Shown here one piece after another: positions 57,249 to 59,297 of a stretch of DNA of 64,000 nucleotides. Each line of letters opens with the position of its first letter. The stretch's first letter is position 1. A program made the translations under genes and the position numbers. The notes below the pieces were generated by a model. That model saw nothing but the letters and a program-made list of their open reading frames with translations. It ran no database searches and was not told the DNA's origin. The stretch is from assembly GCF_029227855.1 (NCBI RefSeq), contig NZ_CP074356.1; one strand, written 5' to 3'. Source of the stretch: Escherichia coli (lineage in GTDB: Bacteria > Pseudomonadota > Gammaproteobacteria > Enterobacterales > Enterobacteriaceae).

Positions 57249-57494
57249 GTTACTATCCTTATCAACAAATATTAAAACCATAATAGATATTTCTTTATAG
57301 TTTTCATCTGATTCTGAGGTGATATGCCTGATAGTAACGTAAACCTGTCTGATGTTTATATCCCTTCTGTTTAGTTCAATTCCGTTATTTTGGGGCGTGG
57401 TATGAGTATCCATCGCCCAATAATATAACCCTTTGTTTTAAAATTACATAAAATCTATTTTTATTCAATAATTATAAAGTGCTAATAATCAATA

Positions 57495-58717
57495 TTATGG
57501 TATTATATTCTGATAATGATTTGATAAGCGAATTCTTTTGCCAGATGGTATTTCTATTTCCACCCCATAATTTATATCTTTTTCATTAGGAAGTGGCCTC
57601 TTTAAATAAGGCGTGTGTGACATTTTTTTGGGGTTAAGCGTCTCGTATTGAAATACTTCGAACTGATATTCAGACATTTCTGCCCATGTTTGAATTTTAT
57701 TGTATCGAGAGAGTGTCGCAAAGGCTTTAACTTGCTTATAACATTGTTTTTGGAATTCTTGCTGATATGTTAATATGTCATTGTATGAAAGATTGGTTAT
57801 CCTAGCCTCTAAAAATTTAATTATTGTCGAAGCAATTTCCGCTTTTGCTCGTAAAAAGTTGTCATTAATGGTTAATAATGTTGAAAATAAACCTTCGATT
57901 TGTTTGTCAAGATATTGTCCATCTTTATATAATTTGGGGGTAGGGTGTTCTTTATGTAAAAAATAGTGTCACCTAAATTTGCGTCAGTGAAATTTATATT
58001 AAGTAGATCTTCGAAATAAAACCTTGACAAGGTTAGAACGAACCCGGACAGGTTCTGTCCTGTCATATTGAAATCAATAAAGTTGGTTCCGGCAAAGACT
58101 TTCATCCTGTTTTTATTTTCACTGTGCTCAATATATAACTTCGTCATTTTTTGATACAGGCTTTGAATATCTTTTATATTAGTTGGTAAGTCAGCTCGTT
58201 GTTCAGCAATAAAATTAGTATCTGAAAACATGGTTTGGACACTGAATGTTATGGGTATTCCCTCTTCTACGCTAATTTTAGTTATGATTGCCTTGTCGGG
58301 TTTAGGATTAGCGACAACAATGATTCGACATTCAGCACTTTTGTTTTTTTCATATCTAATGTTATTAATCTGATTAAGTATTGATTGTGTCTGTTGCGTA
58401 AGTGGTGTCGAACTTATCGTTTCAATGTTATTAATAAGACTTACAAGTTGAACCACAACTTTTGAGTAGTCTGCATTTGTATATGTGGTGTTCGTGTGGC
58501 ATGCATTAATTTGTTGGAGTTGTTGTTGCGCTAAATCAAATTGTTCAGGGTTGTATCCTTCTCCAGAGAATATGGAATTAATGGGTTGTTGTTCTTCCCA
58601 ATTATCACAAGGCCACTTCGGTGTGTCTGGCGTTTTAACATTATCGGTATTTGTTGTGCAGTTATAAATATCGCCGTGATATGTATTTATTATACCTGGG
58701 GTAAAGTCAATTGACAT
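57495..58717 (-). pseudogene. Fragmented hypothetical protein with pentapeptide-like repeats (possibly yhiS-like); function unknown
   Basis: A 281-aa minus-strand ORF (57872-58717) and a 60-aa ORF (57495-57677) separated by 194 bp, AT-rich with Asn/Thr/Gln-rich low-complexity stretches. yhiS occupies this position in K-12 as recalled, but I could not verify identity. Confidence 0.3.
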
Positions 58718-59297
58718 AACATTCCTTATTCATCATCTGTTTTATGCTAAGGTTTTTAAATTGAATAATTAGAACAGGAATGGATTTTCTTCTACACACA
58801 ATAAATATAATGCGTTATATCTTCCTGATATAATTACCTTTAAATTCCCTTTCATTTCCACCCGGTAATATTTGTGTATAAAAAAAAGGCAGTGATAGTA
58901 TCGTAAAGGAAAACGTTAACAACTATCAAAAAGCGCTCATTTTAAAAAGTTATTATGTTCTCCGATAGTGTGTGAAGTAATATTTTTGTGATGTTTTAGA
59001 TGTGTAATAATGAACCAGGTTAAAGTGTATTTAAAAATGTGTTGTATTAGCGACTGAAATCTGCCTTTTAAAAAGGAGGAGGGTACTGAGACAAAGAGTC
59101 ATTGCTTCTCCGATAAAATGTCAGAGAAGCATGATTACGTAGTTATTGTCTGTTGATGACTTGTTGACCGAGCCGTCATCATTCTCAATGCATTAGTTAA
59201 ATCATTTGTGATTTTTAAGGATTATCCTGTCTATGATTTTCTACTTAGAAGGATATGGCACTAACTATGCATCTTATAGTTTACTGCTGGCATCTAT

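Follow-up and report, generated by a model that had tools for sequence, protein, structure and literature searches.

What do two short open reading frames (ORFs) signify when they lie close together on the same strand of a strongly AT-rich tract of Escherichia coli DNA: two genes, the pieces of a single gene, or chance openings in sequence that has never encoded a protein? The question arises at positions 57249–59297 of a 64,000-nucleotide (nt) stretch of contig NZ_CP074356.1 (assembly GCF_029227855.1), hereafter the window, in the interval that separates slp from a gene for an ArsP-type permease. An earlier note, made from the letters alone, had described there a 281-amino-acid (aa) and a 60-aa ORF on the minus strand, 194 bp apart, had attributed them to yhiS, a gene known to be split by the insertion sequence (IS) IS5 in K-12, and had proposed that a point frameshift or stop rather than an IS had disrupted the gene in this strain. 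The ORF listing confirms both ORFs, with the peptide quoted in the note inside the longer one. The analysis reported here indicates that the locus very probably holds a pseudogenized copy of yhiS, an AT-rich orphan confined to E. coli and Shigella, and that this allele arose through the loss of one T from a run of seven.

The evidence for a single broken gene comes from alignment with intact alleles. The longer ORF (57872–58717, minus strand) encodes 253 native YhiS residues, after which come 28 read out of frame and a premature TAA. The 60-aa ORF (57495–57677, minus strand) is the ATG-delimited tail of a stranded C-terminal part of the gene (57495–57959, minus strand), which comprises codons 254–407 and the natural stop. 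Over its full extent (57495–58717, minus strand; 1,223 nt) the pseudogene aligns end to end with two intact 407-aa alleles (L002 and L003), each of 1,224 nt, equivalent to 407 codons and a stop, with one gap of 1 nt. This sole indel is a 1-bp deletion that turns a T7 run into T6 at 57958–57963 (minus strand), across codons I252-F253-L254 and at alignment column 768. Restoring one T yields an uninterrupted 407-aa ORF; in the window as it stands, the original frame runs without a stop from 57959, where the frameshift occurs, until the natural one at 57495, and ends in ...NHYQNIIP*, in agreement with the intact alleles. As there is a single indel and the frame is open past the lesion, the two ORFs are pieces of one gene, yhiS, separated by one frameshift. 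The apparent gap of 194 bp between them is an artefact, because ORF calling starts at the first ATG. An intact 407-codon frame is therefore what the window allele lacks, owing to the 1-bp deletion and the ensuing stop at 57872. Across the 16 alleles compared, the tract is T7 in the in-frame alleles nearest to the window and TTTTTTC in more divergent ones.

The assignment to yhiS rests on several concordant observations. The locus sits between the ars genes and slp, where K-12 derivatives carry their IS5-split pseudogene; the K-12 literature places the arsC/yhiS and insH_11/slp regions there; and UniRef names the exact 281-aa product YhiS. The whole interval of 2,049 nt is 100% identical to that of E. 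coli CFSAN029787, where RefSeq carries the label 'hypothetical protein, frameshifted'. A frameshifted yhiS pseudogene is thus already annotated for the identical sequence, and in this respect the finding is ordinary and already known. The end at 57602 that the Prokaryotic Genome Annotation Pipeline (PGAP) assigns to the pseudogene stems from the pipeline's reference, the 371-aa form of the protein from O157:H7; a second lesion in the window gene was considered as the cause of this early end and rejected in favour of the shorter reference. The earlier attribution to yhiS and to a point lesion is accordingly borne out, and the alignment to intact homologues that the note had suggested places the disruption at the T6 tract. 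Neither of the two outcomes that the note had named as contrary to its reading occurred: the disruption is present, and intact 407-aa alleles were found. Its description of the ORFs as fragmented is correct in that the gene is broken, but slightly overstates the damage, as only one lesion is present in this strain.

The T6 allele is widespread. An exact 80-mer bearing T6 was found in 1,107 of 5,426 complete E. coli genomes, T6 with one single-nucleotide polymorphism in approximately 180 further genomes (extrapolated from 2 of the 40 matches listed) and the same flanks with T7 in approximately 1,100 (an estimate likewise extrapolated from listed matches). All seven T6 genomes that were sampled carry the annotation 'frameshifted', and the exact 281-aa product is encoded on at least 1,000 public contigs from several sources. 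A variable-site matrix of 13 alleles places T6 on three different 5' backgrounds (window type, K-12/EA2 type and O157 type), and the tract occurs both with and without an upstream indel that encompasses the permease gene. The local 3' haplotype, by contrast with these varied 5' backgrounds, is common to all T6 alleles, which favours a single origin followed by recombination. The simplest reading is that of one old T6 deletion, spread by descent and homologous recombination; it is the more parsimonious account rather than a proven one, since slippage that recurred on similar local haplotypes would leave the same picture. Present in about a fifth of complete E. coli genomes, the T7-to-T6 deletion provides a convenient marker of both lineage and recombination.

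Further lesions have accumulated on T6 backgrounds, as is expected of a dead gene: three alleles (L007, L008 and L014) have lost a G near codon 375, and another (L013) has a nonsense mutation at codon 43. The allele of E. coli FORC_069 (L014) is peculiar in its own right, as T6 is followed 18 nt downstream by a C5-to-C6 insertion that restores the frame and then by two more 1-nt deletions, with the indels at columns 755, 780, 1030 and 1123 of the yhiS alignment. The C5-to-C6 change could be genuinely compensatory, or these indels could reflect homopolymer sequencing errors.

The sequence of events that we propose starts with replication slippage in the homopolymer, which would have removed one T. 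The frame shifts after F253, 28 aberrant residues are appended before the stop at 57872 and the C-terminal 154 residues are lost, so that the resulting allele is most likely null. Such a loss would be tolerated if the cell can do without the gene and if, in K-12 at least, the locus is embedded in chromatin bound by H-NS and StpA. Dispensability is indicated by independent disruptions in other lineages. In K-12 derivatives IS5 is inserted at the equivalent of 57972–57976, about 10 nt from the T run; in an enterotoxigenic E. coli (ETEC) strain (L006) IS1 is accompanied by loss of the gene; a 933-bp deletion corresponding to window positions 57414–58346 is shared by 1,052 genomes; and a frameshift from A8 to A7 at codon ~364, which results in a 371-aa product, is matched exactly in 296 genomes, including O157:H7 strains. 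When T6 genomes are included, yhiS is disrupted or shortened in roughly half of the complete genomes. It may be observed that the IS5 (insH11) junction and T6, two independent lesions, cut the gene at nearly the same codon (~248 and ~253, respectively), at the end of the repeat block described below.

What has been lost can be gauged from the intact protein. After repair, the window protein is 66–94% identical to 61 cluster representatives. Intact alleles of 407 aa include WP_000020605.1, WP_000020596.1 and WP_061092817.1, and the 371-aa O157:H7 form is WP_001303709.1. E. coli B is among the strains that carry an intact allele. The matches with a named source in a word-indexed search are exclusively E. 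coli and Shigella proteins, at 64–100% identity. An exhaustive search with a profile hidden Markov model (HMM) against 1.84 billion representative proteins retrieved a single full-length YhiS cluster and no full-length homologue outside E. coli and Shigella; the remaining matches are fragments and long proteins that align only to YhiS residues ~204–277. All eight of the long matches that were checked are pentapeptide-repeat proteins of family PF00805 (E from 1e-36 to 1e-80 to Pfam), and they match the YhiS profile with E values down to 1.7e-8, scores that are somewhat inflated by the summing of several repeat matches. A scan of species-representative genomes with two narrow peptide patterns, which is weak evidence of absence, returned only one contig, from Ensifer sp. 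MPMI2T (L020, NZ_SRXN01000179.1). With a length of 409 bp, a coverage of 0.77 and 98% identity to the yhiS C-terminus, this contig is almost certainly E. coli contamination and was rejected as a homologue.

The region singled out by the profile matches coincides with a block of about ten divergent pentapeptide repeats at residues 206–255 (57954–58102, minus strand), and the T6 frameshift falls in the last unit. Ten consecutive five-residue units with a central L, F or M are present here, an arrangement that none of 20,000 shuffles attained (maximum seven). The solved pentapeptide protein 2f3l from the Protein Data Bank (PDB) aligns in register with the YhiS profile (E=0.004), and the match to Pfam PF00805 itself stays under the gathering score of 20.2 bits, at 9.1 bits (E=1.3, residues 208–225). 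The pentapeptide-like sequence to which the earlier note had drawn attention is thus real, on account of its period-five run and profile matches; it is limited to approximately 50 residues and does not reach the Pfam threshold. Pfam, NCBIfam, PADLOC and PHROGs searches of YhiS gave no match above threshold, and NCBIfam matches to a nucleoside transporter and PorH as well as a PDB match to an isochorismatase were dismissed as chance-level. For the N-terminal 205 and the C-terminal ~150 residues no relatives were detected, with NCBIfam, PADLOC, PHROGs and PDB all blank. In intact YhiS, orphan domains flank a central stretch of about ten pentapeptide repeats, and this short block is the protein's only recognisable feature. 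Our best guess is that the block may act as an interaction scaffold that mimics protein or DNA.

Other attributes of the protein are less distinctive. AlphaFold2 gave no usable model, with a mean pLDDT (predicted local distance difference test) of 35.1 from an alignment of 11 sequences and 33.3 from one of 62; the alleles are too similar to carry co-variation. Conservation across the 62 representatives is patchy: the best blocks are residues 271–300 and 376–407, both of which are missing from the truncated product. Nothing obviously resembling a signal peptide or membrane segment was noticed in intact YhiS by eye, no predictor having been used. With its polar N-terminus and central repeats, YhiS bears some resemblance to type III secretion effectors with pentapeptide repeats (PipB2/EspX-like). 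No effector family emerged from the general Pfam, NCBIfam and PDB searches, in which no direct comparison with such effectors was made, and no secretion system is encoded in the immediate neighbourhood of yhiS.

Patterns of substitution indicate that the frame has been under constraint. A frame of 407 open codons would arise by chance with a probability of 5.5e-14 at this base composition, and yet it has been kept open in four allele families that are up to 22% divergent in DNA. The ratio of nonsynonymous to synonymous substitution rates (dN/dS) between families is 0.27–0.53 in pairwise comparisons, below 1 with Fisher p values of 2e-4 to 8e-19, and is lowest (0.16–0.29) across the repeat block and residues 261–305. 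Positive selection was sought region by region and no segment with pN/pS above 1 was found, the range being 0.16–0.93. An open frame in divergent families combined with dN/dS below 1 implies that yhiS is, or was, a real protein gene, and on these ratios YhiS has evolved under weak but significant purifying selection.

The depth of divergence at this locus stands out from its surroundings. Synonymous divergence (dS) between yhiS families is 0.2–0.6, against 0–0.04 for the adjacent slp and 0.01–0.24 for dctR and arsC in the same genomes; even where yhiS alleles differ by up to 22%, the slp genes of the genomes concerned are 99–100% identical. The variable block comprises yhiS and its upstream region, roughly 57450–59100, and is mosaic. 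In a comparison with L022, identity is 98–100% down to ~58500, falls to 78–87% across 58400–57700 and returns to 99–100% by 57500. The intergenic region between yhiS and slp (57249–57494; 28.5% GC) is where divergent yhiS alleles reconverge, to 95–100% identity. This pattern points to ancient alleles or introgression, accompanied by intragenic recombination. Beside the highly conserved slp, yhiS is thus a hotspot of both deep mosaic divergence and recurrent inactivation.

Base composition sets the locus apart in a further respect. GC content is 49.9% across the window but only 32.6% in the interval 57249–59297, and none of 620 sliding intervals of 2,049 nt has a lower value. Within this interval, the 580-bp region upstream of yhiS (58718–59297) has 31.7% GC; its proximal portion (58718–59033) is homologous to the K-12 arsC–yhiS intergenic region, and the remainder (59034–59297) belongs to the permease/ArsR indel. 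The windowed GC calculation that the note had called for thus upholds its description of an AT-rich stretch with an AT-rich upstream region of some 580 bp. In K-12, the arsC/yhiS spacer and the insH_11/slp region, which holds the 3' fragment of yhiS, have been listed as 'promoter islands', predicted to be foreign and bound by H-NS in experiments with chromatin immunoprecipitation on microarrays (ChIP-chip); the H-NS-bound arsC/yhiS island measures 470 bp (PMC3661553, Table 1). A preprint places yhiS among the loci with high binding affinity for StpA (bioRxiv 10.64898/2026.02.10.705075), and overexpression of YdeO leaves yhiS expression unchanged in K-12 (PMC4222967). The proposal in the note that the DNA was horizontally acquired and silenced by H-NS fits the low GC content and the narrow distribution, and its suggestion of horizontal acquisition is supported as far as composition, the lack of full-length homologues beyond E. 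coli and Shigella and the K-12 islands can suggest it; H-NS binding is reported for K-12 only. A scan for terminators found none upstream of yhiS or between yhiS and slp, and repeat and tandem-repeat scans gave only short matches at chance level, with no IS ends or miniature inverted-repeat transposable elements (MITEs).

Several other explanations of the broken frame deserve consideration. Single-base homopolymer indels are the typical error of long-read sequencing, and the FORC_069 allele displays extra ones, so that the gene might be intact in the organism and broken only in the assembly. This possibility is effectively refuted: the frameshift is not a sequencing error, because the identical T6 80-mer recurs in 1,107 independent complete genomes, and the truncated protein itself recurs on at least 1,000 contigs. 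It is very improbable, too, that yhiS never encoded a protein and that its ORFs are spurious openings in non-coding, AT-rich, H-NS-bound DNA. The absence of homologues beyond E. coli and Shigella, the lack of a confidently predicted fold, a composition rich in Asn, Thr, Gln and Ile that is driven by AT content, and frequent disruption within the species would all be in keeping with such a view. In addition, no paper was found that assigns a function: our literature search retrieved no functional study of yhiS, Z4907 or ECs4376, and Z4907, the EDL933 orthologue, is mentioned solely as an 'unknown gene' at the border of the acid fitness island. Against this stand the long frame maintained in four divergent families, the dN/dS ratios, which fall significantly short of 1 in all comparisons and reach their minimum in the repeat block, and the significant similarity of the profile to pentapeptide-repeat proteins.

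The remaining alternatives accept the gene and the lesion and question whether inactivation is real or permanent. If the T6/T7 tract were a slipped-strand switch, yhiS would be a reversible, phase-variable contingency locus. That T6 (~1,100–1,300 genomes) is common, as is T7 within the same 80-nt flank, that T6 is found on three 5' backgrounds irrespective of the permease indel, and that other homopolymer lesions exist (A8 to A7 in O157 and the frame-restoring C5-to-C6 insertion 18 nt past T6 in FORC_069) lend this idea some appeal. The tract, however, is only 6 or 7 nt long, whereas homopolymers of about 9 nt or more are typical of contingency loci; the run is interrupted in many alleles (TTTTTTC); the single local 3' haplotype of all T6 alleles fits one origin with recombination; T6 alleles bear further, irreversible lesions such as the G deletion and the nonsense codon; and the FORC_069 indels may be homopolymer sequencing errors. 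Phase variation is consequently judged improbable. Less credible still is a split gene with two functional products, or synthesis of full-length YhiS through −1 slippage of tRNA-Phe on the U run. In this strain the downstream frame has indeed stayed free of stops between the lesion and its natural end, and in the T6 mRNA, which reads AUU UUU UAC, a −1 slip on UUU in the P site would lead to UUA CAU and thus back to the native ...TIFLHKE.... However, a canonical X XXY YYZ heptamer is lacking and no stimulatory structure is evident, the start of the 60-aa ORF lies 94 codons past the lesion, and the downstream frameshifts or upstream stops carried by some T6 alleles argue against selection for the downstream frame.

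The interpretation of the locus as a frameshifted pseudogene of yhiS is therefore retained, and several considerations weigh against it. Both nullity and silencing are inferred for this strain. The truncated product keeps the N-terminal region and nearly the whole repeat block, and could have partial activity. The beta-helix fold and the function of the intact protein have no usable AlphaFold2 model behind them, so that the fold is putative. Lastly, the very deep allelic divergence, with dS up to 0.6, is ill-suited to the simple neutral decay of a gene. Ancient allele families within flanks that are 99–100% identical, together with repeated loss, form a pattern expected under balancing or antagonistic selection, and yhiS might be an E. 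coli-specific pentapeptide-repeat gene kept in this manner as ancient, recombining allele families. We regard this as a minority possibility, somewhat less remote than phase variation. If it were true, such selection might act, for example, through an interaction whose partner is a host factor, phage or competitor; and if the pattern reflects selection rather than introgression plus neutrality, the locus would offer a tractable case of how E. coli keeps and discards H-NS-silenced orphan genes.

The wider neighbourhood belongs to the E. coli acid fitness island, at the edge nearer to the ars genes. On one side of yhiS are hdeD, hdeAB, yhiD, dctR and slp, and on the other the permease, an ArsR-family gene and arsCBR. 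The immediate flanks, according to the annotation, are slp (56682–57248, minus strand), which encodes an outer-membrane lipoprotein and is on the same strand as yhiS, and the ArsP_1-family permease gene (59298–60311, minus strand; Pfam PF03773 on an orthologue). The order ars cluster (arsC or ArsP permease), yhiS, slp is found also in L002, L003, L021 and L022. The permease and a divergent ArsR/SmtB regulator (60419–60715, plus strand) constitute a 1.6-kb module (59034–60645) that is an insertion/deletion polymorphism, its place being taken by approximately 100 bp in K-12-like, chuA+ and ETEC genomes; the module gives the impression of an accessory addition to the arsRBC cluster. Within the permease gene, a patch at 59800–59999 is 84–92% identical between genomes and its flanking sequence 94–100%; by position it matches a Cys-rich stretch of the protein and forms a second, small divergence hotspot. 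No Rfam family scored above threshold in 56000–61000. Sub-threshold matches to naRNA4, a nucleoid-associated RNA derived from repetitive extragenic palindromic (REP) elements, occur on both strands at 60759–60796 (29.7 bits against a gathering score of 59.5); this is likely a REP-like palindrome, which lies a short way beyond the indel boundary at 60645, with the ArsR-family gene on one side and arsC on the other. In the chuA+ genomes L002, L004 and L021 the haem-uptake genes chuS–chuA lie directly past dctR, where the window has yhiD–hdeBA, and in L004, which is devoid of arsRB, arsC is directly followed by dinQ and gorA.

Comparison with known systems puts these features in perspective. The H-NS-bound promoter islands described by the Ozoline group in E. 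coli DNA of horizontal origin (PMC3661553) include the K-12 counterparts of both regions that flank or contain yhiS sequence, and the composition of the window matches; unlike promoter islands, the region upstream of yhiS in the window shows no surplus of promoter-like sites, as a simple sigma-70 scan counted 13 against 11.8 ± 3.5 in shuffles. With PF00805 proteins such as Rfr32 of Cyanothece (2f3l), YhiS shares about ten tandem units, a central L, F or M and a frequent preceding N or D, and the profile matches between them are reciprocal. It differs from them in that the repeat spans only ~50 residues, equivalent to ~2.5 predicted helix turns, and remains below the Pfam gathering score, the i−2 position is often not A, S, T, C or V, and the flanks are without homologues. 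Among the alleles of yhiS itself, the O157:H7 form carries a different frameshift, A8 to A7, and retains most of the protein, unlike the window allele, which ends at 253 native residues where intact YhiS at the orthologous position has 407. The closest parallel is the IS5/insH11-split pseudogene of K-12. It is found at the same locus (ars cluster, yhiS, slp, dctR), is similarly AT-rich and shows ~96% nucleotide identity, although the 1.6-kb ArsP permease/ArsR module upstream is missing. K-12 harbours T7 at the site and an IS; the window, in contrast, has a 1-bp deletion and no IS, and yet in both genes the inactivating lesion falls near codon 250, where the repeat block ends.

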